Origin: Nymphon striatum
Lineage: Eukaryota
Length of the DNA stretch: 64,000 nucleotides
Direction of reading: 5' to 3'
Assembly: GCA_016618385.1 (NCBI GenBank)
Contig: JABFOP010000225.1
Span: 15,735 to 79,734 of the forward strand
Shown here piece after piece: positions 12,537 to 45,480 of the stretch. The number at the start of each line of letters is the position of its first letter. Position 1 is the first letter of the stretch. The notes below the pieces were generated by a model that had not been told where the DNA came from, did not search any database, and saw nothing but the letters and a program-made list of their open reading frames with translations. Made by a program: the position numbers and the translations under genes.

Positions 12537-13261
12537 CTTGTTATAGAAAAACTCCAAAATGGGCAGACTTTTTATATATGATGGCTTATAATGAAAAAGG
12601 GCTGCAAAATAGAGTGAAGCATGGCAAAATGAAATTAACTAAATGGGCCGAGTGCAGGAAAGAAATACTATCAATGTGAGTGAAAGTGGCAGTGGCACAG
12701 TGGGTGGAGCTCTCGTTTGTGAAGTACTGGTTTGGTTTCTGGTTCATAGTTATGAATGAAACTTTGAGTGAAAATTTAAAACACAATATTTCAGCTGGAA
12801 CTTTTACATGGGAATGAATGAGCAGTAAGAAAGGTAGAGTAATAACATGGGATGAACAAAGTATATTTATGGAGATGGATGTTAGGAATCAGGATATTAT
12901 ATGAAATGAAGTTTTAAAAAAATAGAGGGAGATAGAGAGCTGATGTGGTAGGTGTGAGTCATAAAATGAGAGAATATTGCCTTTGGAAGTTTGAGGTTTT
13001 GGACAGAAAGGATGTTGGCAATCCAATAAAGAATGTTTAAGATAATCGAAGAGAGTGAAATGGAAAGGAAAGGAAAGCAGAAACTGAGATGCTGAGATAT
13101 CATGAAAAAGATTATGAGTGAAGATGAAATTTGTTAGATAACAGACAATAAAGTCCTATGGCATACACACATGTTCTAAACAATGTACACTGAGGTAAAG
13201 ACAATGGGAAAAGAAGAAATATTTCAAATAAATAAAAAGTAAGAATGACATACATTCTTAT

Positions 13262-13538
13262 GCTGAAGACTGGTACAATTTTCCTGCCATTAGCTAAATT
13301 ATATACATGAATTCTACCATTATAACTTCCACGGAATAACAGACTCGACTTCACATCCCATACGAAAGAAGTAGTAATCTCTGCTAAGCGGTTAATGCTA
13401 TGGACTTGACTGATAGATGTATCCTTTTGCTTTGATATTGTCAAGAGGTAAATGCTATCATAATAACAATATACTATTTCAAAGCCACAAAATTCCAAGA
13501 ACATCGGGAAAGGACAGTTATAATCATTCTGAGAATAG
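13262..13538 (-). CDS. WD40 exon (NDYNCPFPMFLEFCGFEIVYCYYDSIYLLTISKQKDTSISQVHSINRLAEITTSFVWDVKSSLLFRGSYNGRIHVYNLANGRKIVPVFSIR)
   Basis: ORF 13112..13504. Acceptor ttctcag, donor gtatgt. Confidence 0.55.
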
Positions 13539-14762
13539 AATAAAATATTTTTATATAGAAATGCGACATAAATTATTTAAAATTTTATTTATTTATTAGG
13601 CCTAAAATTCACGAACAGCTTATTAACACTAAAAATATATCAATACAGATTCAAAATATTTAAAATTATTAGGGAAAAAAAAGAAAAAATTTACAAGGTA
13701 GTTAAGTTTTGGCAGCATGACGTCATTTCTAAATAAAGTTCTATAAAGTGGTGAGACAAATATGAACTAATGCCTCATTTCCAAATTTTGATACATATAT
13801 TCTTTTGGTAGATTGATTTAAGTAATTCTCAAGTAGGTTGTAAAATAATTAAATGAAAGTGTGCACAGTGCTGCCAAAAACTAGTGTTGGAGCAAAATTA
13901 AATCCGATTGATTGATAAAATGAAAATAAACAAATGAGTAAGTTAAAACAGGTAAAATGCAAACAAATATAAAATATTTAACTATTAAATTATTTGGTCA
14001 GTAACATTTAAGAATCTTATGAGAAAATGTTATTCATATATTGATCAAGTGTAGAACTGCTTTAATTTGAGGATAGAAACTTAAATTATGAAACAATCGT
14101 TCATGGAAGGACAGTTATCAATCACAAATGAATATTAGAAGAAAAATGAGTTTATTAACTCATTCAGACACATGCTTTTTTATTTATTTCTGGAATAAAG
14201 AAATTCACAAAAACATATGTAAGTTTACCCAACAGTAAGAAATAATTTTGGAGACAGAAAAAATAGGAAAACAATCTGTCAAGCTATTTCAAAATTATTA
14301 TTTTAGTTATTGTTGTCATTTGTTTTATCTAGTATACCATTCAGCTTTGCAAAACATCCTACAAGAAATTTAATTACTTATGCGTGGCTTGATTTTATGT
14401 TATTTTATTAATTATATTTAAAAATTGATCAGAAACTGAATTGTATTTGTATTAAATTTCAACTCACCTTCATTCCTTTGAAAAGTATTAGAAACAATTT
14501 GCATGGATGTGTTATAAAGATTAGTTATAAATCTATAAATCTAAATACAATTTGGTTTCTAATCACTTATTGTATATAATTGAGAAAAGAACAGACGGTC
14601 AAGCTGTTTCTCATGAGAATACAAAAATATAGACATTTATAGGGTTATAGAGAATGTATGAACACTTGGTTCTTATTCTTCACTGAAACACTATTTTGAA
14701 ATTGTAATTCTACAGATGACATGAATTTTAATGATAAGAAATGAGGTAAAAATATAATCTTA

Positions 14763-15066
14763 CCAGACATAAAGAGTGATTTGTCACTTTAATTGGAGGC
14801 TCTTGGCAATTTGGTTTTGTATTCCAAAGTATCAGATAATCTATATTTGTTTCTTGACAAACACTAAAACTAACTGCACAATTTCTTCTTTTGGAAATTG
14901 TAACATTTCGTACTGAATTATCATGATCATAGTCAATTTTCTGATTTTCTCTCATGCTCCAAATTTTAATAGATTTGTCCACAGATGATGTGAAAATGTT
15001 AGAAGTTGACATAGCCAAACCATTTAATTTATCTAAATGACCATTAAATCTAGATACATTTTCAAC
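14763..15066 (-). CDS. WD40 exon (VENVSRFNGHLDKLNGLAMSTSNIFTSSVDKSIKIWSMRENQKIDYDHDNSVRNVTISKRRNCAVSFSVCQETNIDYLILWNTKPNCQEPPIKVTNHSLCL)
   Basis: ORF 14728..15018 extended. SSVDKSIKIWS is a canonical WD40 core. Acceptor ctttag, donor gtaaga. Phase 0 matches the upstream exon. Confidence 0.65.
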
Positions 15067-15136
15067 CTAAAGATTTGATGACAGATGTTTTATGAGAAGT
15101 TTTGCATTGGAAAACATTAACACCAAAAGATTAAGA

Positions 15137-15280
15137 AATTACCGCAAAAGGAATGAAAACAGATACAGTGCCAAATTCAGTTTCAGCACAGATTAGAAAG
15201 TCAGGAACAGGTTTTCGATCATTAATTTCCTTATTTTCATCTTCATTTTCATTTATAGATTCGCTCCAATGGCTTTGAAC
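15137..15280 (-). CDS. Exon (QSHWSESINENEDENKEINDRKPVPDFLICAETEFGTVSVFIPFA)
   Basis: ORF 15131..15361. Acceptor tttttcctag, donor gtaatt. Confidence 0.5.
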
Positions 15281-16861
15281 TAGGAAAAATAATAAATACA
15301 CTCTGAAATATTCTTTGACATACACTATAATAATAGCTCTTAAGTAATCTTTCTCAGGCAAAGCTAGTTACATATATGTTTTCACCCAAATATTATTGAT
15401 GGTGTTTTATAGAATTTTTCTTGAAAGTTTTCCAGAGAATTAATTTGCACATCACATTCTAGTTAGATTTCAAATTATAAATGAGCAGAATTTTTAATCT
15501 TTTAAAAGCAACAAAAGGCTGAAATAATACTTTCTGATATAAATCAAATGAGATCTCCATTCAGACCTTTATTCATTATTTCCATGTATTCTTAAAACTG
15601 ATGGACAAAGTCAATTTACAAATTTTGCTATTGCATATTTGGGACTATTGTTACAGCATTTTAACATAACAAACTCTAAAACGATTATCTGCAATTACCT
15701 CTTTAGTTTCAGAATATTTTATATATTTCATTTACTATTTATTTCATGCTTGTCAAAATATATAGTGGCTTACAGAGATTTGAGCCAAACGACATGGTAT
15801 ATTGAAGAAGTCAGAATATATATATATGACCACCCATAGCATATTACCTCAAAATTGACAAATGGCATATGATTGAAGAAAGTATTTCCTATATTTTATA
15901 GATATAATCAGAAGAGGCATTAAGAATTATTTTCACAAAACAACATATGGTATATTCAAGAAGTCAGAATTTTATATGACCACCCATAGCATTTACAGCA
16001 GCAATTCTTTTGGCCATGTTATAGCGATATCTATGAATCATACTTAAAAGCATATTTCCATGTCTTCTGTAAACAGTCCCAAAGATCATTAATGCTAGAA
16101 GGAGCCAGTTTCATTTTCTCTTAATCAGGATAAACCCATATGGCCTTGATGAGGTTAAAGTCAGGCTTTTGTGAGAGGCCATTCTTTCACTTCCAACATT
16201 CCATCTTTTATTTTTGCCGAAGATAAACTTTTACAATATTCATTTGCAGATGTTTGGGGTCAATAATCTTGACGAAAAATGAAATTTTGACAAATCAACA
16301 ACAAATCAGAAGAAATGGTATGACGCTAGACGTAATGTCATTTGGCAGTAAAACATTACAGTAAATTAGAAACAATTTTATCATTGAATTATTTATCTGC
16401 TTGAAACAGATTCTGGCAGTTAAATATCAATACATTGAATTGTTAGTAAGCATCTCTACATTGAGACATTGGCTTTGACAAGCTTCCACATCTTAATTAA
16501 TTAATTATATACAGCATTTTACATCAGGAGCATATGAAATTTACTATGTAATAAGTTACAAGTAACAAAAATGATATAAAAGCAGCCAAAATTGTTTCTG
16601 TTCCTATGTATTGATATAAATGTTAGACATTTTAGTGGAACACGGAAATCCCTGTTTTCTGTAGAAACACCCAGATAGATAGTAACAAAATACCAATTCT
16701 TGAGCTGAGTTATACTGTACATGTAGTGATACTCGGTAGAAACAGCTTATATGACTTAAGCCACATTGATGTATGAAATACAACAAATATTCTCATTATC
16801 ATCATGATTACATTCAATTTCACATACAAATATAGTCAGGTTCAAAATTTTGTCACTATAA

Positions 16862-16886
16862 TATATTATATCATAGTTAGTTAGTT
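16862..16886. repeat. (AGTT)n microsatellite
   Basis: agttagttagttagttagtt. Confidence 0.9.
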
Positions 16887-17329
16887 AGTTAGTTAGGATT
16901 ACGTGCTTGGCAACAAAAGGCCCTTGCACGAAGTCTGAATAATCTTTCCTTAATTATTGTACATACAGATGACCATTCATCCTGATTTCTAGCCAATAAA
17001 GCCCTTCTATATTGACTTTGCACTGAAATTACGGGGGGGGGGGGTGATAACGGGGCATTTGGAAATTATCTGTTCTATGTCTTCGTTTGGGTGTTCGCAT
17101 AGCTGACATTGAGGTGAAGTAGAAAGATTAAATCTGTGCAGATAGGTGTAGGACGGAAAGTGGTTAAATCGGAGTTTCGTTATGATGACTTGGTGTTGCC
17201 TCATAACAAAAAGGGAAAAAAAAGCCACAAATATTACTCACCACATAGATTACTATTATAGCTATTTGCAGAAAACAAAAATGATTGTCCTGGAACTATC
17301 TTTTCAATTGATGTGCATAATTTACCATT

Positions 17330-17388
17330 CTCATCATAAACATCTATTTTGCCATTGTTTGATCCAGTTAATATATAATCATCCTTAA
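17330..17388 (-). CDS. WD40 exon (DDYILTGSNNGKIDVYDEN)
   Basis: Acceptor ttttaag, donor gtaaat. Confidence 0.45.
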
Positions 17389-17571
17389 AAATATACATTT
17401 CATTACTATTAAATGAAGAATATTATTCCGGCTATGCTCATTTTACAACATAGCAAAATAAATAAATAAATCAATAAATATATCAATGAATATAAATATA
17501 ATAAATAGATAATTAATAAGAAATAAATTTTGTCAGATTTGAAGAAAACAAAATACATACAAGCACCATGA

Positions 17572-17680
17572 ATGAATGTGGTGAATCAGGTAATTGAATT
17601 ATATCTTTCCATGTGAAACGATCATCGGGTACATATTTAGCCGTTTTCATCATGCCATCAGATGGAACAGCATACTGAAA
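17572..17680 (-). CDS. Exon (YAVPSDGMMKTAKYVPDDRFTWKDIIQLPDSPHSFM)
   Basis: Acceptor ctgtttcag, donor gtgctt. Confidence 0.45.
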
Positions 17681-18911
17681 CAGTAAAGTGGAAAGATTAT
17701 ATTATTTTCAATATTTTTTATTTGCGGGAACATCAAAGAAAGATATAACTAATTAATTAATCATCATTATTTATTTAAGTATATTAAGTATAGCCTTTGC
17801 AGAAGTTTTGAAAAATGTTTTGTAGGAAGATACCTCAGAGCATCAGTGAACAAAGTGCTCTAAACAATTAATTTCAAATTGAAACAGCACAAACTAAAGT
17901 GAATACTAAACCAAATTAGCTTTACATATTAATAAATTCATATTTTTATATTCTTCAACTAAATAAGAAATCTAAAGTTATTCAATGAACAAAATGTAAG
18001 AAAAGAATAAAGATCAAAATTAGATAAAGGTAAGCCAAATTACAATAGAATCCCATTTAACATCTAATAGTTCTGCTTTGAAGTTTTCAATAATCTTGAA
18101 GGGAGTAAAATCTTTTTCAATGAGAAATTTATTAAAAAATTTCAAAACCTGAAAGTAAAAAAGATAAATTAAAATCTATGCAACTATCGCATATAAAATG
18201 AACTAAATCAGTACACATATGGAATGCCAGCTAATACACTGATATGCTTCCAAATAATCAACCCAAGTTTATATTTAATATTTTATATTTAAAAAACTGA
18301 TGCCTGCCTTTGATGATAAAGTTACTTAAATTAAAAAAGGAACATGATAAAAAAAAAAAAACATAAGATATAAGATTATGCTCATACGATAATAAATAAA
18401 ACAAACAAATAAGAACCCCACATGATTTCAAGCTTTACGGAGCCTACAAGCCTTCATTTTCCGTTGCTTATTTTTCTAACTTTTTCATCTTTCATGCAAG
18501 TCACTTTCATCTGTGCCATTCAATCACGTCCACAGGCAAGTTTTTCTGACATCACTATTACCAGATACTGCAAACTACTGCCGCATTAACCGAACCTCCA
18601 GCATTAATTCTTTAAAGCAATTTTCAAACACTTTTCCTATTTGATTCTCCTCAAATCAAAATTAAGAGAGGGAAATTAAACAAACTTATGGAATAGTAAA
18701 TAATTTCATTTTTCTGCCATCTACTTTTGTATTAATTTCATTTTCATACATTTCCTTTCAAAAATATTGCATTTCTCTACAACTGGGTGGAGGAGTTTTG
18801 TGGTAGATCTGTTGCATTTCGGTGACATCACAGTTTATGACATAATTCTACCTCTATGATATGTATTGAACCTCTAACAGCTTTAACTTAATAAAATATT
18901 TTCTTGCTATT

Positions 18912-19493
18912 GCAGGGGTCGAAATTCCCATTTGCCCGGCGGTCCGAGACCCCCAAAAATTACGTCGGACCACCTAAGTGTTGTAGTAAAGGTGTCCGGT
19001 GGACCTCCTGAAATTTGTCAATAAAAATTTTCATTTTTAAAATTCCCGCCATGGCGGCGTATATACTATCTTGTACTTACAATGTTCGCCAACATAAAAG
19101 TCGCGCGAGAGAACTAAATTAACTAATACTTTTGCAGCGAAGAATATTACGATAGGTCTTGTAATGCTGATTTAGAAAGTGACAATGAATGCAACAGTGA
19201 ATTAAGTGACTATGATGATGATGATACCTATGATGATGAGAGAGACATTTGATTGTATTGTTGATTATTTTAGAAATATAGATCTATTCATGACCAACAC
19301 CTTTGTTTTATAAGAATTTTAAATTTCCCGCCAATTCAAATTTTGAGTTTCCCGCTAATTCAAAGTTCGAATTTCCCGCCGTTTTAAGAAACCGAAAAAA
19401 ATCAGGACCACCAGATTTTCAGGAGGACCACCTAAAATTTTGGCAGGGGGTCCTGTGGACCACTTGGGATTTCATGGAAATTTCTACCCCTGT
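18912..19493. mobile_element. MITE (about 580 bp) with ~100-bp imperfect TIRs starting CAGGGGT..., internal 22-bp triplicate (gaatttcccgc), apparent 5-bp TSD TATTG
   Basis: 18912-19015 is the reverse complement of 19395-19493. Flanks gctATTG|caggggtc ... acccctg|TATTGcg. Confidence 0.6.
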
Positions 19494-19841
19494 ATTGCGC
19501 CATTAACCATGTGACATCTAACTTATATATTACATATCATTCATCTACTTCACATCCTGATTGTTTTAACATGCTAAATCTAACATAATTTCTTTTAAAC
19601 TGCCTGAAACCAAACTAAAAAAATTAATAAATAAATTCATAATTATGCCAGCTGGAATGATAATTTATATATTTCTAATTTGGTGGTTTAAAACATTGAA
19701 AAGAGTATGATAATCATTCATTCATTCATATTTCATGGAAATAATTTTCAATGAACACATGCGATAAATAAAATATTTGAGCTTAAAACGAGATTCAGAT
19801 GAAATCATAAGATGATTTTATAAATGAACTCTTACTTTGTC

Positions 19842-19930
19842 AGATCCAAGTGTAACAAATATTGATGAAGTAATTTCTTTAATAGCAACAATTGATCCAT
19901 TATGAGCTTGAATTTTAGATTTTGGGAAAT
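19842..19930 (-). CDS. WD40 exon (RENFPKSKIQAHNGSIVAIKEITSSIFVTLGSDK)
   Basis: Acceptor cattttgtag, donor gtaaga. Confidence 0.5.
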
Positions 19931-21894
19931 TTTCTCTACAAAATGAAAAAATTATCAATCAGCTGAGTGAGAAAACTGATATCATGACATGTCATTTTGA
20001 AATCAAATAAGTATCGTATTTCTTGGCGTATAAGTTGACCCTTGTAAATCTTCAACATTTTATTAATGACAATTTGTGAAGCGATATCTTAAATGTAAAA
20101 CAACAGCTGTTTGAGTTCATTAAAGACCGCGTGACAAATAAATAAGTTCTGAAAACTATTTGTGGGTGATTCAATCATTATATGGGTTGATTTTAGAGCC
20201 ATTATCTGTTTCCTTACTCAGGGCTTGATCCAGGGGAAAAAGTTTGGACACCCATCATTTTACGATCAATCTAAAGCTAAGTTTCGGCCGAGGGCACTTG
20301 CGCCCGTTTTTTAGAAAAAAAGAAAGATTTTGTATGATAAAATGAAGACATTTTAGAGCACCATGGGGAAAAGTATTAAGCAATTAGAGTGACAGTATGT
20401 TACACCAATCAGAGACTGAAAGACAACCTAACATTCATCTGGACTTGACAAAAGTTAAACATGATCAGATCACAATTATATATTTTTTTGAAATATGCAA
20501 GGTTGATTATGTTGATCATGTTAACTTTATATCAGGATAATATAAAAAGACTGCCTTTTTGATACAGGTAACCAACTACATGCAGTCCTTGCATTTTTAA
20601 AATCGGACGGGACTGATAAATAGGCCTCATCACGTGGGGTGAGGGGGCTGATTTTAAAATTGCTTCAAAATCTTGTGACTTAGTTTTTGTAAACTGTTTA
20701 TTGTAACCTGTGGTCCAAATTGACCAATGTCCGTACAAACTGAGCCTAATCCTAACTATGTAATTTCAAAATGTACCCTAAAAGGCCGCCTAACACAAAG
20801 TTTTAAAAATTCAAAATCTCGCAAAATGTCCACACCTGGATCAACCAGTAACCTAGTAATAATGTCAAAAAGGTTATTCTCATAACAAATTTATGAGTTT
20901 ATTGATCCATTTTTGTCAACAAAACTAATTTATCTACAAATATATCTCCAATGACAGAAGATGTAAATGTGTTATACGTGTGTTCAGTACATTCTGCCAA
21001 ATAGTAATTAATTTCAGCATGTAAATCTTCAGGCAAAACCCCCAAAAGTCACTATTATTAGATTCGTCAGATAATTGTGAAAGAGATTCATCCCCTGAGC
21101 TACCTGAAGATAAGTCCAACAAAACAGTATTTTCTATATATATATAAAAAAATTTCACGGCTAAATTTTGTTTTGAGTTCATTAAAGACCGACGGACGGC
21201 CTATCGATTCAATAAGTTTTGAAAACAATTTCGTGGGTGATCCAGTCATTTTATGGAAATTATTGAAAATTGACCACGGGTCGATTAGGAGGGCAAGGCT
21301 GATCGGCTATGTAAAAATGCAAACCCTGCACATGTAAACATAATTTTATAAAGTTCAAACTTGTACGTCTTTATCATACCTGTCAACCCCGATGCCTGCC
21401 AGCCCTTATTAAACATTGTACTTTCCCTTACTAAATCACTAAAAACAGTATGCGTGCCACAAAACTTGTTCTAATGGGTAACAACACATAACAAAGCCGT
21501 TGATCTGCCTGGATCGGAAGCCTGGATTGGAAGAGGAAATAATTCTAAGCCTAAAGCGCATGCGCAAAAAATCGCCACGCGCAGACGCGACCAAAACGAG
21601 ATCACAAATTAAATTTTTCTTATTTACCCGTGATGCCTTGCACCAGAATCGGAAAAAGATGTCTGTCGAACGTAAACATAAGCAATTTTGAGTTTTAAAA
21701 ACAATATGATCGTAGTTTTGTTGAGAAAAAGTGAGAAAAAAATAATTGTGAATTTTGAAATTTCCCGTATGGGTTTTCATTGTACGCCGTATATTACTAC
21801 AGTCACTGTATTACACTTTCATGAGAATAAAACAGTTTTCGCTCTTGCTGCCCGCTGTTCCGGCGATAGATGGGTTACTCATCTGCCATGGATC

Positions 21895-22170
21895 CTTCGT
21901 ATAAGCTGACACACACCGTAGTCCTCCGTGGTGTAGCGGTTAACACGCTTGGCTCATGAGTTGGGAGACGCGGGTTCATTTCCCGGAGGTACCAATGTTA
22001 CGTTCACAGGGAAGCAGATTTAGGGGACCATTAATTAAGAGATAGAAAAAGGAACCTCTTACCTCCAACGGGAATCAAACTTGCGTCTTCCAACTCATGA
22101 GCCAAGCGTGTTAACCGCTACACCACGGAGGACTGCGGTGTGTATCAGCTTATACGAAGCTCATACTCTT
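21895..22170. repeat. tRNA-like sequence (about 72 nt) and its inverted copy forming a near-perfect ~100-bp-stem hairpin around a ~70-nt loop
   Basis: cttcgtataagctgacacacaccgtagtcctccgtggtgtagcggttaacacgcttggctcatgagttgg… versus reverse complement at 22060-22165 with about 10 mismatches. Confidence 0.7.
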
Positions 22171-22993
22171 GGAAGTTATTAACATTAATGTAGTCGCTAC
22201 ATGACTCCCCGGCTAGTAATAACGTGTATAGAATTAGCGAGACATATATGACCTGTCTGAAGGTTAGAATAGATCTGTGACCATAAGTGGTATCGGCCTG
22301 AAGGCAGACGGAAAGAAAGAAAGAAATATATACATGGTGAAAAAGAACAATATAATTTATGGTAATAAATTCCCATATGGCTTGGGGACATACGGGGGAA
22401 GAAAAATATGGCAGTCAGATGTCGTCGCTAACGGTCGTTACATTTCAAGGCTGAAGTTTGTTCTTAATTGAAGAAGATTTGTCTCTCTTTCACCACAGAA
22501 CACCATTCTCAGCAATTTGTTTGGCATAGCTATTACAATTTTTTTTTAAATTTTGAGTATGGGCGCCCAAACCTGTTTAAACAGGTTCAAAATCTTCAGG
22601 CCCTGTTATTGGTCACCTAATTCAGGGAGCATCAGCCAATCATAGAATAAACTGCCAGACAATCGATCTCACAAAAAGTTCAAGCGTCGAGACTTTGTGA
22701 TTTACGTGACTTATGTGAAATAAGTTGATGTGGATTTTTTCACCCCTATTTTGGGTCTCAGAAACTTGACTTATACACCGAGAAAAACAGTATCAAGATA
22801 TTTAAAATACTAGTTAAAAGTAAACTTTCAAGGAAAAAAAAACCATCATTCAAAAAAAAAAAAGAATAAAAAAGGTTATTGCAAAAATGAAATTTAAAAA
22901 ATGAGAAAAGTTAAAAGAATAGTACTTGACAGTAATTCTATAAAAACAAAAAAACAAAACACGAACAAAATGTAAGACTGTAAAATAAATTAC

Positions 22994-23088
22994 TTTGCAT
23001 CTTCCATTTTGAACCAACACAATGTACCATCTTCATTGCCAACAAATAATTCAGAAAATAACAAGATTAAAGCTGTTACTGGAGATAA
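22994..23088 (-). CDS. WD40 exon (TALILLFSELFVGNEDGTLCWFKMEDAK)
   Basis: Acceptor tctccag, donor gtaatt. Confidence 0.45.
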
Positions 23089-23228
23089 ATTTTGACAATT
23101 GTATTCAAATTTCACGCTGTTTTTTATTTTTGATTCCACATTCACACTCTATGAATGAAAGAAGATTTTAACTTGTTTAAAGATTGAAGATAAAATAATA
23201 ACGGCTGTGTTAGTGAGCATTTTATTAC

Positions 23229-23335
23229 CATCACAACTCCAGATGAGGTACCAACATAAATTTCGTCAAATGAAATATCCATTAATGTGATTATATCATT
23301 TGTAACTTGTTTGGAAATTTCTGAAGAGATCAACA
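23229..23335 (-). CDS. WD40 exon (LISSEISKQVTNDIITLMDISFDEIYVGTSSGVVM)
   Basis: ORF 23142..23336. Acceptor ttgcag, donor gtaata. Confidence 0.45.
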
Positions 23336-23696
23336 CTGCAATTCAACATATTGAAATGAATAAATTATTACAGAAACAATGACTACAGTAATTTTTCCAT
23401 ATCTGCATAACATGTTAAACACATTTTCAGTTTTACTAGTTTCAAGACTGTGCCTTACTAGTGAGATAATACTACAATATGATTAAATGAAAAACATGTT
23501 GCTAAAAATGATGAAAAAAATTTCTAAGAAATTAATAGCCTTACAAAATGGTTCATGTAAATTATTGACAGAGTTTAGACTTTCTTATTATAAATTGGTT
23601 TACAAAACAAACCATTTAGAAGTGAAAAACGTAAACAAATAAAATATTCTTACTAGAGCTTCCATGATAAATAAATTCTACACAAACAACATAACC

Positions 23697-23808
23697 ATCA
23701 TGATAGGAAATACACAATCTACTGAGTCTGACATTGCGATGGCAGTAACTGCAAAATTTCTTGCATATGAATATGCTTTCTTTCCAGTCGTTGATTTGAA
23801 AACCTAAA
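23697..23808 (-). CDS. WD40 exon (VFKSTTGKKAYSYARNFAVTAIAMSDSVDCVFPIMM); 3' boundary uncertain
   Basis: Acceptor catttag. Two WD-like frames overlap here. Confidence 0.35.
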
Positions 23809-24962
23809 TGTATGAAAAAGCAAATATTAGACATAAGTATTTGTATATCAATAACTTTAAATAAAAATCAACAGGGTAATCAATAAAATATTATATATTA
23901 TATTTATTATCATTTTTATTTTAATTGAATTTCTTATACACCGATACACACTTATTTATATGCCACGTTTTACTATAGTTAATATAAAAATTCATATTGT
24001 TTATAATATTTATTATAATAAAGAAATATTTACCTAACCGCGCCCAAACAGTTTTGAGAATAAAAAAAGCAGACGACTTATGAATGAATGACGTCACTTA
24101 TAAAAATAATGTTTTACACTTTTACAACTCACAATTTTCTTACCATGAATGTAGAAATATGCATTTGTTAAATATTCTATGTTTCAGGCATAACTGCTTC
24201 TGATATTACCAATTTCAAAATATATGGCATATTAACATATTTTCTTGTAGAACTGTATCTAATATCTCTTAATTAATGTGATTATTTTTACGCGGATTAT
24301 TGTATTCTATAGATTAAACCAATGCTACAAAAGAGTTATTTGGATCACATATGATATAAAAATGTTGAAATGGAAATTGAATCCATAAGTTGTTTTTTAA
24401 TTATTTTAAATGTTTTTAAGATATTATGTGATATAGAGGATAATATTGTAAATTATTAAAAAATCAAAGATTTTCTATGTGTTAAAAATTGAAATGAGAA
24501 TTACACTCCAAACATAAAAATACAATAAGGAAAAATTTTTGAATAAGAATTCAAGTTACAATATCTGGTTTTCTGGACTGAGGTACAGATCTTACATCAA
24601 TCAGTAAGATTTTATATCTATACAAAAAATATTTTGAGTTTTTTTTTTCATTTTGGGATGATATGATACACTTTCTTTATTTTCGTTTGGTGCTCACATG
24701 ATCCCTTTCAATTTTGTTATTTTACAGAGATTTCATTACTCATACGATCTACCAATAAAAATATTAACGATATACAAACACTAATTAAGCTAACATTCGG
24801 ATTATTGCACACTTAGCTTTTGATACTTTCTTTGGCGTTTGAGGACTTTGAATTTTAATTTATGTATTTGATGTTCAACAAAATGAATACATTCAAAATT
24901 TAAAAAGCATTTATAAAATATAAACAATCTTAGAGATAATAACTGTGACATACCGATGTGGA

Positions 24963-25058
24963 ATCTTTATCATCATCATTTACAATTATATTTGTCCCAC
25001 AGGGAGATACAAGCAGTTCATTGGCATGGAATTTCTTATAATATGTCTGAAATTGTGA
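24963..25058 (-). CDS. Exon (TYYKKFHANELLVSPCGTNIIVNDDDKDSTS)
   Basis: Acceptor caatttcag, donor gtatgt. Confidence 0.5.
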
Positions 25059-25135
25059 AAAAATAAATAGATGGCAAATGAGAGAAGATGAATTTTAAAG
25101 ATCACTATGTAAATGTGGTTAAAAACTTACAATCA

Positions 25136-25252
25136 TTTGATTTGATAATGACCAAAGTAGTATTTCAGTCATAGAAGCTGAAACAGCAGTTGTACCCGCT
25201 AGATTAATAGATATGTTTTGAACAGATGATTTGTGTCCCCTAAATGTCTATT
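25136..25252 (-). CDS. WD40 exon (TFRGHKSSVQNISINLAGTTAVSASMTEILLWSLSNQMI)
   Basis: Acceptor aattaatag, donor gtaagt. Confidence 0.55.
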
Positions 25253-25324
25253 AATTATGCAATGACTATTAATATAAATCAACTAGAATGAAAATCTAAT
25301 AGGTGAAAGAAATATAAATCATAC

Positions 25325-25434
25325 ATATTTTTTCGTCATGTTTATCAAATCCCAACTCTTGATGAGTTTGTCCCAACCACCAACAAGAATTTCTTGTTTT
25401 GATGGATAGAATTTCACACAATTATGTGGAAGTC
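25325..25434 (-). CDS. WD40 exon (LPHNCVKFYPSKQEILVGGWDKLIKSWDLINMTKKY)
   Basis: Acceptor ccttttcag, donor gtatga. Confidence 0.55.
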
Positions 25435-26099
25435 TGAAAAGGATAATTTCAAAAATTATTATGATGATAACAAAATATTTATAAAACAATAAAATTCAAC
25501 CAAGATATGAGAGACTAGATGATAGGCTAACTTAATTTTTTCAGAATGAGTCTGAAGATTTAATTTTCCATAATTTTTCACGTCTTTTAAGGACTAAAAG
25601 TCATGGCATGGTTGGTAACATTATTTCGTTTGTTTTTTATTTTAACATGACTTAATTCAGGTTTCCACCCTCATGAGATCTATCAAGGACTTAGGAGCTA
25701 GCACAACACAAAAAGTCCTTTATACAGATACAGGTAGATAATGTTGAAGCAGTAAGATTTAAAAGTTTAATGCAAAGATATTATCAGTAATACTGGTAGT
25801 CTTAATACTGTGCAGGGTGAACATCCTCAATTAGTAAATTTCCTTGTTTACACTAAAATACAAAATGCTGGCTGTGTTATGATTTCAACTGAACACTCGA
25901 ATGTTGAAAGGTTCAGAAATGGACATGCTAACAACAGTATCACCAGTCCCATGCACTGTATTAGTAGTATTGAGTATTGAGGTGATTGTTCTTAAACATT
26001 ATACGCACACATAATACATAAACGTTCAAACTGAAACGTTCTACACTATAATTTATGTAAAAAATCTTGGTTTAGTTATAACTCTTGAACATATCTCAC

Positions 26100-26249
26100 C
26101 TTTCAGATGTTATTTTAGAGATCAATCTTCCATCTGTTACGGCCCATAAACATATCTTGCAATCATAGCCAACAGATACTATTGTCATCTTATCACTATC
26201 AATTGCGCAGTCTATAACATCTCTGCTGTGGCATTGTAACACAGACAAA
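26100..26249 (-). CDS. WD40 exon (LSVLQCHSRDVIDCAIDSDKMTIVSVGYDCKICLWAVTDGRLISKITSE)
   Basis: Acceptor ttatttattag, donor gtgaga. Phase fits the previous exon. Confidence 0.6.
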
Positions 26250-26326
26250 CTAATAAATAAAATTTAGTATAAAGAATTGATACATGACAGTGATATTGAT
26301 GTAAGAAAGGACAGCAAAAATATTAC

Positions 26327-26440
26327 CGTAATCCATTGACAATATTCCAAATACTAAGCGATGTATCTTTACTTGAACTACAGAATTTATTGCTGCCTAT
26401 CATTTTTAGAGAGGTGATCGAATTAGAGTGACCAACAAAT
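26327..26440 (-). CDS. WD40 exon (FVGHSNSITSLKMIGSNKFCSSSKDTSLSIWNIVNGL)
   Basis: GH...SSSKD..L.IW repeat pattern. Donor gtaata. An intervening exon upstream is probably missed (phase mismatch). Confidence 0.5.
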
Positions 26441-26548
26441 CTTTTAATTTTCTAATGAAAAGAGGAAATTAGTAATCAAATAATTTGAAACAGCAGATAA
26501 TGCAGATTAACAATATAAATTAAATAATAATGTTCTAGAAGAAAGATT

Positions 26549-26812
26549 GAGAGAATACCGACTGCGGTGGCTGGGGCATGTGTAAAGGATGGATGTATGT
26601 AACCCAGTGAAGGATGCATGGATCAGGGACGTGAGTGGTCAAAGACCGAGAGGAAGGCCGCGTTTGAGATGGAGGGATGTAGTTACAGAGGACATGGATG
26701 AGAGAGGGTTGTGTATTAATGATGCATACGATTAAGTCCTTTAGCGTGCAGGCGTAAGATCCCCTGACCCCATTCCGGTGGGATAAAGGGTGGATGTTGT
26801 TGTTGTTCTAGA
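26549..26812 (+). mobile_element. 5'-truncated RTE/CR1-type LINE 3' end (…RLRWLGHV…GRPRLRWRD…) with a (GTT)n tail and a perfect 16-bp TSD GTTCTAGAAGAAAGAT
   Basis: TSD at 26533-26548 and 26809-26824. The translated frame has the RLRWxGHV motif typical of RTE-clade ORF 3' ends. Confidence 0.75.
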
Positions 26813-27164
26813 AGAAAGATGGCTAAATTTTCAAAAATTAATTTAATTTCCCCCAACATGATATTTCTTGACTTGAATACATATGGCACTCATTCAGCTA
26901 CTTGGCAGAGAGCATTTAAAGATTAAAGATTGGGAAAATAGATCACCAGAATCGGTGAATACTGACTGTTTAATAAAGTTCTAAAAGTAATGAGTAACAC
27001 ATAACTTCAATCAAAATCTGCAGTCTTTTATACATTGCACAGCAACGCTTAGCTAAACACATTTTGGACATGTGAAAATATGCTACACATAGAAGTCACT
27101 GCTGACTCATTACAGTAAATGCTTCAAACACATAAAAATTATATGGTGATAATTTACATAGATA

Positions 27165-27690
27165 TGAGAGACCCTAGGTTGGCAAGCTTTTGGTCGCCTG
27201 AACAATGTTTGGCGCTGCAAGCTACCTCTCTGCTTGAAGCGGAAGGTATACAACCAATGTTTCCTGCCTGTACTAACGTATGGGTCAGAGACCTGGGCAA
27301 TTACAGATACCCTGTTGAAAAAATTGCCGAGTGCCCAACACAGTATGGAAAGAAAGATCCTAGGTGTGAGCTGGAGAGATAGAAAGACTAATAGTTGGGT
27401 GAGGATACACACAGGGTGTAAAGATTTGAACCAGACAGTGAAGAGTAGCAAGTGGTACTGGGCCGGACACTTGATCCGTAGAACAGGTGATAGATGGACC
27501 ATTAAATCCACAATTTGGATACCAGGTAGGGGAGGAAGAAAACGGGGAAAACCGAAGAGAAGGTGGGTGGATGATATAGCTAAGTTTGACAGGGATTGGG
27601 TGGAGAGAGCTGCCGATAGAGAGGACTGGAGAGCTAGACGGGAGGCCTTTGCTCAGCAGTGGGCCAGTATGGGCTGATGATGATGATGAA
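27165..27690 (+). mobile_element. 5'-truncated RTE-clade LINE copy (RT C-terminus …KVYNQCFLPVLTYGSETW…WAGHLIRR…GRKRGKPKRRWVDD…) ending in (TGA)n
   Basis: ORF 27234..27677. About 90 percent identical to 35515-36040. Confidence 0.8.
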
Positions 27691-27869
27691 AGACATTTTA
27701 AAGCTAATAAAAAATAAATATATAAACTAATGTTTATAGTGCATTGAAAGTTTGAACTAGAAAGGGATTTTAAATCACTTTATATGTTAATCTCTAAATT
27801 GAAAAAAAAAAAAATAAAAATTGAAAATAAATCACAAAATAGATTCCAAAGAATGAATAATATTAGGAC

Positions 27870-27968
27870 TTACCTTTTTAACATTACAATCATACAATTG
27901 AATTAAACCGTCAAAACAACCAATTAAAATGAGTTCAGAATGAGGAATAGCTAGAATACAAGTTGGAA
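27870..27968 (-). CDS. WD40 exon (IPTCILAIPHSELILIGCFDGLIQLYDCNVKK)
   Basis: Acceptor ttttag, donor gtaagt. Confidence 0.5.
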
Positions 27969-28496
27969 TCTAAAATTTGTTTTGAGAAAACAAAAATATA
28001 TATTAATCTCCAAATTAAGAAGAACTTTCATTAGAAATATAAATATATAAAAAATTCAAGAATAATAAATAATACAGTACAATCTCTTTAATCTATAACT
28101 CTTGTGACCAGACATGTGCCGGATTTGGAAATATTCTGGATATATGAGGCTTTTCACCTAAGGCTTTGTAGAGCATTAGAATGATGAAATGAAAAAATAA
28201 TAAAGAAATAAACTGCCAATCATATAGTCTGTCATACTATGCACATTCAGAAGTGAATTTTGAAAACCTTTGGTGAATGAGAACTACAAATAAATCAATA
28301 GTACTCTGTAGTGCGGTTGTTTCTGTTTTTTATGGTAGGTCATTAAAGTCGCTTTAATAGACAGAAGATTGCAACTTGAAAGGTGAATATTTTTAATGGA
28401 AATATATAACACAAAAAGTACGAACAATGTGAGTTTCTAAATTTGAAGGTCTCAGATTAGAGAGATTTTATTGTAATAAGAAATCCTAAGATATAC

Positions 28497-28987
28497 CATA
28501 TCATTGTCGCTAAAAGTAAATAGGCAATCTTCATTAATCCTTTTATTGTATCTCCATTCCAAGATATGACTCCTTAAAGCATCATTGCCTTGAATCACAT
28601 TCTGTGCTCTAATATGAACTTCAGTGTGGTTTGGTTCATTTAAAGCCAATTGTAATAACAAAGCAGGATTGGAGAGCAGACGGTGTAGATTCCTTTCCAG
28701 GAAAGACTTAAACTGTAAAATGCATTTATTTGATGAAAATATTTGCTGCTGTTTTTTATATACAGATTTTGAACCCTGAGTAGAATTCCAAGTAAAATCA
28801 GAGAGAATGTCATTGCCAAGACCCAGATCCAGCTTTGCTTGAAGAAAATTTATCTGGGTAATCAGCTTCAATAATTCTTCAAGACAATTGCTGTTTGCAA
28901 GATGATATGGCAAAGAAGATAATGCACGAGCATGTTTCTCGTTCATAGTAGAATCCAGTGTTCTTTTCACTTGAGTCATATATAACC
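28497..28987 (-). CDS. Large exon (LYMTQVKRTLDSTMNEKHARALSSLPYHLANSNCLEELLKLITQINFLQAKLDLGLGNDILSDFTWNSTQGSKSVYKKQQQIFSSNKCILQFKSFLERNLHRLLSNPALLLQLALNEPNHTEVHIRAQNVIQGNDALRSHILEWRYNKRINEDCLFTFSDNDM)
   Basis: ORF 28452..28979. Acceptor cttag, donor gtatat. Phase consistent with the upstream exon. Confidence 0.6.
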
Positions 28988-29083
28988 CTAAGAATAAAAA
29001 GAATTAAAAGTTAAAAAAGAACCAAAATTGTCAGATTTAAAGTAAAATTATAGTACACAGATAATTTGAAAAATTAATCTTAC

Positions 29084-29818: not shown

Positions 29819-32800
29819 ATTCAGTTTTAGTAGAGAGGCAGAATTGAAAAAGTGGCTTAGTTAAGGATTTAAAAATCATTTTGAGGTAGAGCATGGCATC
29901 CACCCTAGATGGGTTGGCTATGGGATGGGGCATATGCCCAGGTAGGATGACACCTAATATTTTTCCAAAATTTTGGTTTTTTAACCCTTTTCAGTCAAAA
30001 TGCCGGTTTCTCAAAAGTCAATATTTTTAGGGGTAGGGAAAGAAGAATTGGTCATAACAAGTTCAATTTTTATCTTAGAATGGCAATCTGCCATTCAAAT
30101 TCTAGCATTTGATGTCCTCTACAAACTCAAATATGAAATTAAAAAAAATAAAATTATTATAAAGGTATACAGGGTCAAATATCTAGGACTGGCCCTCTAC
30201 CCCCCAAAATACGACCCTTTGTCAAATGAGCCCTATGACTCAATTGTTCTGGTGTAGATGTAGGATTGTTGGGGTATTTTTCGGTAAGGGGACATATTCA
30301 GTCAGTTTTTGAAAAAGGTTTGAACTTGATAGGGCAACTAGACAGGGAGTACTGGGGGTACCAATTTGGACCCTTTTTCGATATTTGGCAAAACTTGGGT
30401 TTTTCACAACGCAACAGTCATGAAGGTAAAAAACTTAGGCCAAGAGCAATAGCTTTAACCTGGACATCGCTCATAACAAGCTGAATTTTTCAGGATAGGT
30501 CCAGGAATATGTGTAGAGTAACATACTAAATGTCTCCATAAATCCCCCTGGAGCTATCACCAAAAATCAAGATGGCGTCCAAAATATCCACCAAGCCTCC
30601 AATTTTGTCATAACTTTGCAACCAGAGAAGCTAAAGTAACAAATAAAGTGTCCAAACACATGTTTTAAGACACAAAGAATCTAATAAAATCATTATTTAG
30701 AGGTTTAAAACGTCCAAAATGGCCGCCAAGTTCCAATTTTGACATAACTTTGCAACCAGAGAAGCTAAAATTACAAATAAAGAGTCCAAACATATGTTTT
30801 AAGGCACAGGGAATCTAATAAAAACCTTATTTAGAGGTTTAAAAGGTTCAAAATGGCCGCCTAGTTCCAACTTTGTCATAACTTTACAACCAGAGAAGCT
30901 AAAGTTACAAATAAAGAGTCCAAACATATGTTTTAAGTCACACGGAATCTAATAAAAACATTATTTAGAGGATTAAAACGTCCAAAATGGCCGCCAAGTT
31001 TCAATTTTGTCATAACTTTGCAACCAGAGAAGCTAAAATTACAAATAAATAGTCCAAACATATGTTTTAAAGCACAAGAAATCTAATAAGCACATTATTT
31101 AAAGGTTAAAAACGTCCAAAATGGCCACCATTTTTATTATTTATTTTTTTATACTTTGTAATCAAACAAGTTATAAATACAAATGAAGTGACTAAACACA
31201 TCTTTTAAGGCAAAGAGAACATATGGTGCAAATATTATCTGTTACGTCAGTATTCATCTTCATTATCTGCTGCAGAATCTTCAACGCTAATGACCACTGA
31301 TGATGGTACAATGTCTTCATCATCGACATCTAATAATTACGGTGTTGTGTTGTTGCAAGTTTGACCACTGCGTTTACTGCACATTGAAGTGCAAAAGAGT
31401 CCAAGTTTATTGCAACTACATGTTATGTTGCTACAACCGTCAGGTTTTCAACTACACGGCACCATGTTGAGCAAAGATTCGGGTGCAACAGGCCTGTCTG
31501 TTTCGACTGGTGCAAGAGTTCCATCATGTGATCGCCATCCCCATTCTATTGGAGGCAAAGTATTACCCATCCATTCTTGAACAGTGTGATAAGTGCGGTA
31601 TGAATGTTTCTTTGCTGCAGCACTAGTTGGAGGAAGACTTGCTAGCTGAAATGATGAACTCGGGGAACAGCGCCCGATTGCCTTTTTGTATGCGATGTGG
31701 CGGTATTTATCAAGTGATTCAAAGTTGCTGGCCCCATAGAGTTTAAGAACAAAGGTTTCCCCGGCTCTTTTCACCTTGTCATGGGTGCTTCCATTTATAC
31801 CAGTCAAATTAGGGCTGGACCTAGAACAAATTGCAATAGAAGGTTTTTTTGGCTTTAACTTGTTCATTAGGTCTCTCTGATGAACATATAAAAAGTCTCC
31901 AATCTAATTTGTCATTCGATTAAAAAGTCGATTGTGAGTCGCCTATTGATCGTAATTGAATTTAGATTGTAGGCAGATTATAGAGCTTGAAGTAAGGAAG
32001 ACAACAATTCTCTAAGACAAGATGGACGTCACAGTCACGTGACTTTCATAGCAACCGCTTGTCTAGGGGCAAAAGAACTTGGTCGCTATGGCTTTGGCCG
32101 TGCTGTAAGTATGGTGATAGAGAACTTTTCCAATTCACTGCTTGTTTTAAATTATTTTAACGAACCGGGTGATTTAAATCAGCCTGAAATCAATTCTGGA
32201 GTATAAACAGGATTTGGATAAGCATTAAAAAGCATGGACTTACAATTCGGTTCTGTTTGATTTGATTAAATCATGTAGTCTGTACAGTGATAGTGTACAT
32301 AAATATCTCGACTCGGACAACCAACAAGCCTTTCGGCATGATTTAAACAAATCAAACATAGTCAAATTGTAAGTCCAGGCTTTTTAATACCTACCCATAT
32401 TCTGTTTATACTCCATAATTGATTCTATGCTGGTTAAAATCATCCAGTAAATCAAAAAAGCATTGGAAAACTTCACAATCACAAGTGCGTCCACAGTTAA
32501 CACGGTCAAGGCCATAGCGACCAAGTTCTTTTGCCCCTAGACAAACGGTTGCTATGCAAGTCACGTGATGAAAGCCCGGATGTTGTCTTACAGAATGTGT
32601 GTCTTGAAATCAAATTCCAAAATTTGGGCAAGTTATAGCCATTCTTATATCATGTACTAAATATAATATTTTCGTTTGAATCTAATTTGTCATTCGATTA
32701 AAAAGTCGATTGTGAGTCGCCTATTGATCGTAATCGAATTTGCATTGTGGGCAAATTATAGAGATTGAAGTAAGGAAGACAACTATGTGCGTCTTGAATC

Positions 32801-34512
32801 GATATTCTAAAATTTTCCAAAAAACCTTCTATTGTAATTTGTTCTAGGCCCAGTTAAATGATTGCTAGATTTACTGGACTATATATATGGAAATCGACTT
32901 GTCGAAACACAATAGGCGCGGTTTCATTGGGTGTCTTTAAATCTGAATAAGTTGCCGATTGTGTTCTAATTGACTCTGTAATTAGAAGCGGGAATGTATT
33001 TCTGGTAAAGTGATTTTATTTCTCACATGTCGCCAATGTTCTACAATTTGTTACGTCATTGTTAATTGTTATTGTTATACATTTTTTTAATGAGGTTTTG
33101 GATACTTATGATTTTTGAAACCTCTAGATAATGATTTTATTAGATTACTTGTGCCTTACAACATATGTTTGAACACTTTGTTTGTAATTTTAGCTTCTCC
33201 GGTTGCAAAGTTATGACAAAATTTGAACTTGGCGGTCATTTTGGACGTTTAAAACTTATAAATGATGATTTTATTAGATTCCCTGTGCCTTAAAATATAT
33301 GTTTAGACACTTTATTTGTAATTTTAGCTTCTCCGGTTGCAAAGTTATGACGAAATTGGAACTTGGCGGCCATTTTAGACGATTTAAACCTCTAAATAAT
33401 GATTTTATTAGATTCCTTGTGCCTTAAAACATATGTTTATACACTTTATTTGTAATATTAGCTCCACCGGTTGCAAAGTTATGACAAAATTGGAACTTGG
33501 CGGCCATTTTGGACGATTTAAACCTCTAAATAATGATTTTATTAGATTCCTTGTGCCTTAAAACATATGTTTAGACACTTTATTTGTAATTTTAGCTCCT
33601 CCGGTTGCAAAGTTATGACAAAATTGGAACTTGGCGGCCATTTTGGACGTTTTAAACCTCTAAATAATGATTTTATTAGATTCCTTGTGCCTTAAAACAT
33701 ATGTTTAGACACTTTATTTGTAATTTTAGCTTATCTGGTTGCAAAGTTATGACAAAATTGGAGGCTTGGTGGATATTTTGGACGCCATCTTGATTTTTGG
33801 TGATAGCTCCAGGGGATTTATGGAGACATTTAGTATGTTGCTCTACACATATTCCTGGACCTATCCTGAAAAATTCAGCTTGTTATGAGCGATGTCCAGG
33901 TTAAAGCTAATGCTCTTGGCCTAAGTGCTTTACCTTTATAACTGTTGCGTTGTGAAAAACCCAATTTTTGCCAAATGTCGAAAAAGGGTCCAAATTGGTA
34001 CCCCCAGTACTCCCTCTCTATTTGCCCTATCAAGTCCAAAACTTTTTCAAAAACTGACTGAATATGTCCCCTTACTGAAAAATACCCATAAAACCCTACA
34101 TCTATACCAGAACAATTGAGTCATAGGGTTCATTTCACAAAGGGTCGTATTTTGGGGGTAGAGGGTCAGTCCTAGATTTTTGACCCTGTATACCCCTACA
34201 ATAATTTTTTTTTTTAATATTTCATATTTGAATATGGAGAGGACATATAATTCTATCATTTGAATGGTATATTGCCATTCTAAGATAAAAATTGAATTTA
34301 TTATGAGCAATTCTTCTTTCCCTACCCCTAAAAATATTGAATTTTGTGAAACCGGCATTTTGATAGAAAAGGGTTAAAAAACCAAAATTTCGGGAAAAAT
34401 ATTAGGTGTCATCCTACCTGGGCATATGCCCCATCCCATAGCCAACCCATCTAGGGTGGATGCCATGCTCTACCTTCCAATGATTTTCAAATCCTGATTT
34501 ATCGATTCTGCC
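29819..34512 (+). mobile_element. Copy 2 of the same long-TIR element; carries a nested MITE at 32010-32595
   Basis: 29825-30540 is the reverse complement of 33830-34510. 120-bp arrays at 30545-31150 and 33110-33780. Internal ORF 31448..31867 is homologous to 7733..8332. Confidence 0.8.
32010..32595. mobile_element. Nested hairpin-forming MITE (about 585 bp, ~75-bp TIRs plus an internal palindrome) inserted into the 180-bp array of element copy 2
   Basis: Absent from the otherwise colinear copy 1: ggaagacaacaat|gtgtgtcttg is contiguous at 8470. Terminal inverted repeats acaagatggacgtcacagtcacgtgactttcatagcaacc... / ...ggttgctatgcaagtcacgtgatgaaagcccggatgttgtcttac. Confidence 0.75.
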
Positions 34513-35284: not shown

Positions 35285-36040
35285 ACTGTCAACAACGGAA
35301 GTAGTCCTGTTCTCGGAGTCCCCTCAGGAGCTTCAACTTATGGTTAAGGAACTAAGGACTACCAGTAATAAAGTAGGTTTAGAGATTAATTTGAGTAAGA
35401 CTAAGGTCATGTTTAACAGAAATGTAGAAATCCAACCCAATGTGGCCTTGGACCAAGTTGATAGATATACTTATTTAGGACAGCTTACACAGAGACTTGG
35501 AACCGTGAGGCGACGTGTTGCCCTAGGTTGGCAAGCTTTTGGTCACCTGAACAATGTTTGGTGCAGCAAGCTACCTCTCTGCTTGAAACGGAAGGTATAC
35601 AACCAATGTGTCCTGCCTGTACTAACGTATGGGTCAGAGACCTGGGCAATTACAGATACTCTGTTGAGAAAATTGGCGAGTGCCCAACACAGTATGGAAA
35701 GAAAGATCCTACGTGTGAGCTGGAGGGATAGAAAGACTAACAGTTGGGTGAGGACACACACAGGGTGTAAAGATTTGACTCAGACAGTGAAGAGTAGCAA
35801 GTGGAACTGGGCCGGACACTTGACCCGTAGAACAGACGATAGGTGGACCACTAAATCCACAATTTGGATAACAGATAGGGGAGGAAGAAAACGGGGAAAA
35901 CCGAAGAGAAGGTGGGTGGATGATATAGCTAAGTGTGACAAGGATTGGGTGGAAAGAGCTGCCGATAGAGAGGACTGGAGATCTAGACGGGAGGCCTTTG
36001 CTCAGCAGTGGGCCAGTACGGGCTGATGATGATGATGATC
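35285..36040 (+). mobile_element. Second, longer 5'-truncated RTE-clade LINE copy ending in (TGA)n
   Basis: ORF 35340..36026 (228 aa) with RT C-terminal motifs. Same family as 27165-27690. Confidence 0.8.
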
Positions 36041-39166: not shown

Positions 39167-39562
39167 TTGATAAAATTCTTACTGACAAATGGGAATCCGA
39201 TCTCCCGTCATTATTCAATGAACTTCTTAGATTTGAGCAACAACCCCAAAAAGGTTTCTTCATCTTCATCAGTTACATATTTGATTCAGCATCATGCAGA
39301 CACTACATTTTTCCCAAATATCAGGGAGTTGCTGAGCATTCTTGCTGTATTGCCAATTGGAAGTTGTGAAGCCGAAAGGTCCTTTTCTTGTGTGCGGCGT
39401 ATTCACTCATGGCTTCGGTCATCTATGTCCACAGATAGATTATCAGACCTTTGTGTGATTGCCATGCATGGTAATATCCCTGTTTCCACTAAGGAAATTG
39501 TCAACCGCTTCATTACATTACATCCACGTCGAATGCAGGGACAAAGTCTTTTCTCGTTGTAG
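39167..39562 (+). mobile_element. hAT transposase C-terminal dimerisation-domain fragment (…LAVLPIGSCEAERSFSCVRRIHSWLRSSMSTDRLSDLCVIAMH…)
   Basis: ORF 39167..39562. Classic hATC motif SxxxERxFSxxxxIxTxxRxxLxxxxLxxL. Confidence 0.7.
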
Positions 39563-44729: not shown

Positions 44730-45480
44730 TCTCAAATTCAATGTGTTTTCTCAGTATCGAGAATGCGGAAATTATTTAGGTTAACTGAACACCCACATGT
44801 TTGTGAGTGAAGGTGTATGTTGCTGTTAGTATCGGATAAAGGAGGTTTGTTAGTCCGGGCACTCCTGTGAGCATGTTCAGTCAGACGTTGATATAAGTGT
44901 CTCTTAGTTGAACCGACGTAAGAGACTGGTGCATTGCGTGCACAACTATATTCGTAAACAATGTTTGACCTCATGCCCAAAGAAAGCCTGTCTTTAAAAT
45001 GAAAAAAGGAGTTAATTCGAAATTTATTGATTAGTATTATTTGTATATTATGATTTTTATAAAATTTATTAAGGAATATGAGAAGGTCAGATTTGAGTTT
45101 AATAGATTGGTGTCCAAAGTACGGAAGGGTAAAATAGAATTTGTTATCTGATGAAGTTTGGGAGTCCTGAGCAGTAGAATATAGATTGTTGAGAAAATTT
45201 TTGATATATTTGTTAATTAGGAATTCGGGAAAATCGTTATTATGGAAGAAGGTTTTTAAGAATTGAAACTCAGAGTGCAAGGTATGAAAGTTAGAAGAAA
45301 TCTTATAAGCACGAGAAATGAGTGTTAGTATGGTAGAAAGTTTGAATTGTGGTGGGCAGAAGCTGAAATAGCTTAACCCTAGACCTGAGAATGTGGGTTT
45401 TCTGTAAACGGAAGTTGTAAAAGTTAGTGAGCTCTGCAGTCATACAGCAAAAAATACAAACTGAGTAAAAGAGAAATCTC
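44730..45480 (-). mobile_element. Penelope-like element (PLE) 3' fragment with GIY-YIG endonuclease domain (…NIVYEYSCARNAPVSYVGSTKRHLYQRLTEH…)
   Basis: ORF 44738..45280. YVGxTxRxLxxRxxEH GIY-YIG signature preceded by PLE-typical conserved blocks. Confidence 0.65.

Follow-up and report, generated by a model that had tools for sequence, protein, structure and literature searches.

The locus at 21895-22159 of the window (the whole stretch of Nymphon striatum DNA analyzed here, 64,000 nt in length) is an imperfect palindrome of approximately 265 bp, in which a unit of ~98 nt and its inverted copy are arranged tail to tail. The reading we favor, at a probability of roughly one half, is that this single locus within the 64-kb window arose by inverted duplication or local retro-copying of a tRNA-derived pseudogene unit, and that it is decaying and carries no selected function. 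The features of the repeat and of the gene around it are listed in Table 1.

Table 1. Features of the inverted repeat and of the surrounding Apaf-1-like gene, in window coordinates.
Feature	Position	Strand	Description
Left-arm leader	21895-21921	+	27 nt, non-tRNA, CTTCGTATAAGCTGACACACACCGTAG, with a TATAAG motif
Left tRNA-like unit	21922-21992	+	degenerate; 3-nt deletion in the T arm; B box GGTTCATTTCC; CCA follows at 21993-21995
Spacer (hairpin loop)	21993-22059		67 nt, unrelated sequence
T5 run	22046-22050	-	starts 10 nt downstream of the 3´ end of the right tRNA-like unit; resembles a pol III terminator
Right tRNA-like unit	22060-22132	-	degenerate; B box AGTTTGATTCC, C56 to T
Right-arm leader	22133-22159	-	27 nt, inverted copy of 21895-21921
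APAF1_C exon	28455-29003	-	Pfam E 1.4e-12
WD40-type exons upstream of the repeat	26326-26451, 26099-26263, 25322-25495, 25122-25247	-	WD40 matches
Nearest putative upstream exon	22993-23148	-	open frame, WD-like, ...LFVGNEDGTLCWFKM...
Nearest putative downstream exon	19821-19958	-	open frame, WD-like, ...GSIVAIKEITSSIFVTLGSDKVRVHL
Further downstream WD40-type exons	17237-17422, 14731-15066, 13115-13576	-	14731-15066 matches WD40 proteins

Each unit comprises a leader and a tRNA-like part of 71-73 nt. The left unit reads on the plus strand (21895-21992) and the right unit on the minus strand (22159-22060), with their 3´ ends facing each other. A repeat search returned ungapped arms of 91 nt (21895-21985 and 22069-22159), which are 91% complementary and lie 83 nt apart. 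A gapped alignment extends the arms to 21895-21992 and 22060-22159, approximately 98 nt each, with one 3-nt indel and a spacer of 67 nt. The outer part of the arms aligns over 77 bp at 96% identity by BLASTN, and the leaders agree at 25 of 27 positions (consensus CTTCGTATAAGCTGAyACACACCGyAG). Two arm pieces, of 33 nt and 24 nt, are each present once on each strand and nowhere else in the 64 kb, where shuffled sequence predicts 0.00 occurrences. The initial annotation had described a perfect stem of ~100 bp with few mismatches that reached to 22170. The long stem stands; the word perfect does not, as the arms differ by eight substitutions and the indel, and the repeat ends at 22159. The same annotation had taken the repeated unit to be a tRNA-like sequence of ~72 nt. 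This likeness is real but weak, and the 27 nt upstream of the tRNA-like part belong to the repeated unit as well.

The RNA fold was predicted for 21880-22175. The plus strand folds with -185.9 kcal/mol (z -19.3) and the minus strand with -179.6 kcal/mol (z -21.0), and none of 200 shuffled sequences folds as well. A hairpin far below the shuffled background is thus predicted for a transcript of either strand, in agreement with the fold proposed at first. As DNA, a repeat with a 67-nt spacer and ~90% identity between its arms is expected to be genetically fairly stable.

The tRNA-like parts are degenerate. With the Rfam tRNA model, the right unit (22060-22132, minus strand) scores 30.0 bits, just over the gathering score of 29 (local E 0.00036, window-wide E 0.033), and the left unit (21922-21991, plus strand) scores 21.6 bits, which is below it. 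ARAGORN calls no tRNA in the window or in either arm. The acceptor stem and the D arm are well formed in both units, the anticodon stem retains three of five pairs in the Rfam alignment, and the T stems are broken in both. In the left T arm, changes in the A58 region accompany the altered B box and the deletion, and in the right T arm the lesion falls on the conserved C56. The A box (TGGTGTAGCGG) is acceptable; the B box matches at 9 of 11 positions per arm, with the lesions at conserved positions. Neither unit forms the cloverleaf of a tRNA gene with a 7-nt anticodon loop. When the tRNA-like state is taken at each site that differs between the arms, the reconstructed ancestor has a perfect B box, and ARAGORN folds it into a cloverleaf whose anticodon loop has 8 nt and whose anticodon stem includes four G.U pairs. 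The defect of the anticodon arm is identical in both arms, which indicates that the duplication started from a pseudo-tRNA or from a tRNA-derived repeat. Both copies decayed further, and independently, after it. Assignment of a tRNA isotype was abandoned, given a D arm similar to that of several unrelated tRNAs and a disrupted anticodon arm. Two matches to the Rfam family 'Plastid-ycf2' on the other strand, which at 31.1 and 25.8 bits lie far below its threshold of 65.7, were set aside as a side effect of antisense tRNA sequence.

The edges of the homology are sharp. Outside, it begins abruptly at the outer end of the leader (21895); inside, it stops at the discriminator base in both arms. Beyond this inner boundary comes CCA in the left arm, and AGAGGTTCC followed by TTTTT in the right arm. 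The arms are therefore asymmetric, with the CCA after the left unit only and the T5 run after the right unit only. The plus strand carries no T4 run between 21839 and 22539. A self-complement test found no palindromy left in the spacer except TTAATTAA at 22031-22038, and a residual central palindrome was rejected, since the spacer scores no better than its shuffles (8.0 against a shuffle mean of 8.5, with 678 of 1000 shuffles scoring at least as high). Only these precise boundaries, namely a shared start of the leader outside and the 3´ end of the tRNA inside, where one arm carries the CCA, hint at a specific and possibly RNA-mediated origin. A CCA arises by accident with a chance of 1 in 64 per arm, and the one next to the left unit could be such an accident.

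We infer the mode of origin of the inverted copy from these boundaries and from the state of the two units. The source unit would have consisted of the 27-nt leader and an already defective tRNA-derived sequence. The right unit looks original because it reaches the Rfam threshold and has the T5 run 10 nt downstream, and it would thus represent the initial pol III-type unit. The left copy could have been made by either of two routes. In the first, an inverted duplication at the DNA level, by template switch or fold-back repair, would have placed it next to the source; a random endpoint is not expected to fall exactly at the 3´ end of the tRNA, which counts against this route. In the second, the transcript of the right unit, containing the leader and processed at its 3´ end, would have been reverse transcribed, which would account for the CCA and for the sharp boundary at either end. 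Against this route, transcription would have to begin 27 nt ahead of the tRNA-like part, and the transcript would have to keep its leader. After copying, the two arms decayed independently. Upon transcription of the host gene, the intron RNA would fold as a duplex of ~95 bp, which by analogy could be open to Dicer-2-type or ADAR-type enzymes only as a by-product. The repeat itself probably has no selected function.

The pattern of divergence is in line with such decay only in part. The eight substitutions between the arms comprise seven transitions and one transversion. Read from the alignment, the seven transitions split 4:3 between the strands as G.U wobble versus mismatch, which is the neutral expectation and gives no sign that pairing was preserved on a particular transcript. 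The divergence is uneven along the arms, with two differences in the outer 70 nt and six in the inner 27 (Fisher p 0.005). Such a skew is not what uniform neutral decay would produce; the outer part may have undergone gene conversion or be under constraint, or CpG decay may have struck the CpG-rich T arm. The composition also counts against the favored reading: the element has a CpG o/e of 0.99 and a GC content of 49%, compared with a background of 0.56 and 33%, which suggests that it is fairly young or protected. Across the window as a whole, this low CpG o/e is accompanied by a GpC o/e of 1.05, and the window-wide depletion of CpG is consistent with germline cytosine methylation.

The repeat lies within an Apaf-1-like gene on the minus strand (12389-29003), which comprises an APAF1_C helical-domain exon and, downstream of it, many WD40-type exons with predicted boundaries. 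The large protein search found no relative of the APAF1_C exon; Pfam and PDB searches gave its identity instead. The repeat is located in a gap of ~3 kb between WD40-type exons and is therefore most likely intronic, as had been proposed from the outset. The 4.5 kb around it are otherwise unique within the window. The Apaf-1-like gene is also interrupted by transposon insertions.

Further copies were sought by several methods. Exact and 3-mismatch patterns and BLASTN with a word size of 7 found none in the 64 kb beyond the two arms, and neither did nhmmer with --max and a two-arm profile, nor Rfam matches with E up to 1. No sequence complementary to the arms is present elsewhere in the 64-kb window. 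When pieces of 21-23 nt from the unit were compared with viral, metagenome and prokaryote collections, the only match was a tRNA-Asp of a jumbo phage, which shares 25 identical nt of the acceptor and D arm with the sea-spider unit; it was rejected as a relative of the locus, as this is generic tRNA similarity and not homology. That phage contig (IMG/VR, 497 kb) carries a tRNA cluster for Cys, Asp, Phe, Tyr, Glu and Thr at 7841-8887. A search with the concatenated peptides of the antisense ORFs of the arms returned no match, and a sequence search of the literature did not find the element, its only match being a Staphylococcus tRNA-like string. For the whole element, no exact target site duplication (TSD) of 3-10 bp was found at inward shifts of 0-6 nt, with only a 2-nt CG at a shift of 5, and none was read in the flanks around either single unit.

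The window is AT-rich and transposon-rich, and it contains 43 pairs of inverted repeats within 3 kb, among which the tRNA-like pair ranks 22nd by arm length. A Foldback-like element is present in two copies (6486-10567 and 30545-33815), with arms of 927 nt (94%) and 586 nt (91%). These arms are built from 134-nt tandem subrepeats, of which a third block occurs at 39976-40236, and each copy holds an ORF beginning MNKLKPK (7733-8332 and 31448-31867, both on the minus strand) with no Pfam match. A MITE-like inverted repeat at 51314-52004 has ends of the Tc1/mariner type, TA|CAGTCATTTGC ... GCAAATGACTG|TA, and a second inverted pair (51425-51893) is nested in it. Two further inverted repeats (39857-41205 and 56244-56908) have arms of 174 nt each that are 95% complementary, and in the latter the complementarity runs on into the flanks. 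C-terminal fragments of RTE-type reverse transcriptases occur at 27234-27677 and 35340-36026 on the plus strand. They match stretches of Nymphon striatum proteins at 88-92% identity, which for 35340-36026 points to that species or a close relative as the source of the window. Many of the matched proteins are annotated as host genes (MARCH2, neprilysin, TRIM71, Dlg1 and others), suggesting that transposon-derived exons have been fused into the gene models of that genome. A hAT dimerization domain is encoded at 39167-39562 on the plus strand (Pfam E 7.4e-5). The minus-strand ORF at 44738-45280 contains, as read by eye, a GIY-YIG-like motif (YVGSTKRHLYQRLTEH) of the kind found in Penelope-like elements, for which Pfam gave no confirmation. 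A 101-nt tandem repeat (11499-11765; 2.6 copies, 93% matches) overlaps a minus-strand ORF of 131 aa.

Against the reading of a decaying local copy, a serious but less likely alternative is that the locus is a MITE or a small foldback element, whose terminal inverted repeats (TIRs) of ~98 bp derive from a captured tRNA-like unit and whose internal region is the 67-nt spacer. The element is compact (265 bp) and non-coding, its TIRs are long and its outer ends are sharp. An inner boundary at the end of the tRNA would be natural if the TIR were the captured unit itself. The window is also rich in TIR elements, including the Foldback-like copies with arms of 586-927 nt and the Tc1/mariner-type MITE with its TA duplication. 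However, no TSD flanks the locus even when the boundary is moved inward, a second copy is absent from the 64 kb, and the TIRs are 9-11% diverged, and unevenly so. The termini (CTTCG...) fit no transposon superfamily motif known to us.

It is unlikely that the locus is a functional hairpin-RNA gene, whose stem would be transcribed within the host intron, or from the left unit by pol III, and then diced to siRNAs. Transcription of the hairpin is predicted from its intronic position. The ~95-bp stem is very stable on both strands, and since the plus strand has no T4 run until 22539, a pol III transcript from the left unit would span the whole hairpin. The 96% identity of the outer 77 bp, with all five of its CpGs intact in each arm, also fits this reading. 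It is opposed by the lesions of both B boxes at conserved positions, by the broken anticodon arm that the two units share, by mismatches with no strand-specific wobble bias, and by the lack of a complementary target sequence elsewhere in the window. Were small RNAs present, the locus would represent an unusual way for an hpRNA to originate, in an arthropod lineage that has been little studied.

The initial annotation had also considered a dimeric SINE. In this form, two tRNA-derived SINEs would have inserted independently, 67 nt apart and in opposite orientation, as an inverted SINE pair or 'SINE dimer', and we consider this improbable. The tRNA-like head has its A box and an ancestrally perfect B box, and the boundaries of the unit are the same in both copies. 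In a SINE, however, the head would stand at the extreme 5´ end, whereas here 27 nt upstream of the tRNA start are common to both copies, which are joined tail to tail. Neither copy has a tRNA-unrelated body, an A-rich or simple-repeat tail, or a TSD, the spacer does not resemble a tail either, and truncation at the same 3´ position would be required twice. The search for other copies returned no dispersed monomer within the 64 kb, which likewise disfavors the proposal in its original wording.

A more elaborate variant, which we rate as a long shot, combines the retro-copy with a function. A pol III tRNA-like unit would have acquired, close downstream, an inverted retro-copy of its own leader-containing and CCA-tagged transcript, and a transcript running on from the left unit, which has no terminator, or one of the host intron would yield the ~95-bp hairpin and, from it, siRNAs against tRNA-like or SINE transcripts. 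If true, this self-made hairpin gene would be a natural long hairpin driven by a tRNA promoter in a chelicerate.

That the two units are functional tRNA genes in convergent orientation, held alike by selection on their coding region and an upstream promoter, is very improbable. The homology does cover exactly the leader, with its TATAAG motif, and the tRNA, a T5 run follows the right unit, and the right unit reaches the Rfam gathering score; yet ARAGORN rejects both units, only 3 of 5 anticodon-stem pairs form, even the reconstructed ancestor has an anticodon loop of 8 nt, and with broken T stems and a 3-nt deletion in the left unit the structure nearly refutes this reading. Palindromic artifacts are known from long-read and amplified libraries, but an assembly artifact, such as a palindromic chimeric read, can practically be dismissed here because the arms differ (by the eight substitutions and the indel), and the 265 bp, with an asymmetric 67-nt spacer, lie inside unique sequence.

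The local inverted copy that we favor can be placed among several known systems. Close to it in arrangement are the inverted Alu and B1 pairs in mammalian introns and UTRs, which likewise place two opposed pol III-derived copies in one transcription unit and are likewise predicted to form a long intramolecular dsRNA. Such inverted Alu/B1 dsRNA is a substrate for ADAR and Dicer. In contrast to inverted SINE pairs, the sea-spider units lack a body, a tail and a TSD, have a 5´ leader in common, and are without dispersed copies in the window; compared with Alu, the arms are only ~98 nt in length and the source is tRNA-like rather than 7SL.

The Twin SINE of Culex contains two tRNA-like units as direct repeats and is multi-copy, and the tRNA-miRNA genes of gammaherpesvirus 68 join a tRNA-like pol III unit with intact promoters to a downstream short pre-miRNA hairpin. 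Both resemble the present locus in that a tRNA-like pol III unit is joined to a second module, and they differ from it in that the units here are inverted and their B boxes are damaged. Tailless tRNA retro-pseudogenes that end in CCA offer a parallel to the left unit, which ends in GGAGGTA-CCA as if derived from a 3´-matured RNA; they differ in that the sea-spider unit has a 27-nt 5´ leader, which is absent from mature tRNA, and no TSD.

A transcribed inverted repeat gives a hairpin that Dicer-2 can process, and LIRBase and typical RNAi substrates have arms of at least 400 nt, shorter ones being set aside as MITE- or Alu-like (PMC8728187). Compared with Drosophila hpRNA and LIRBase loci, the present locus has the same inverted-repeat hairpin design, with shorter arms of ~98 nt. 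MITEs and Foldback elements are likewise short and non-coding, with long TIRs and a hairpin-forming transcript, and true examples are found in the same window; in contrast to them, the tRNA-like pair lacks a TSD and a recognizable terminal motif and occurs only once in the window.

Repeat turnover commonly leaves behind short inverted repeats made of small pol III-derived sequences, and taken by itself the locus matters little. The locus behaves like an inverted SINE pair in a transcript, yet it departs from SINEs in its build and from MITEs in its lack of a TSD, and it provides a tidy case of how a hairpin-RNA precursor may arise from a tRNA-like unit inside a gene, here an Apaf-1-like one.
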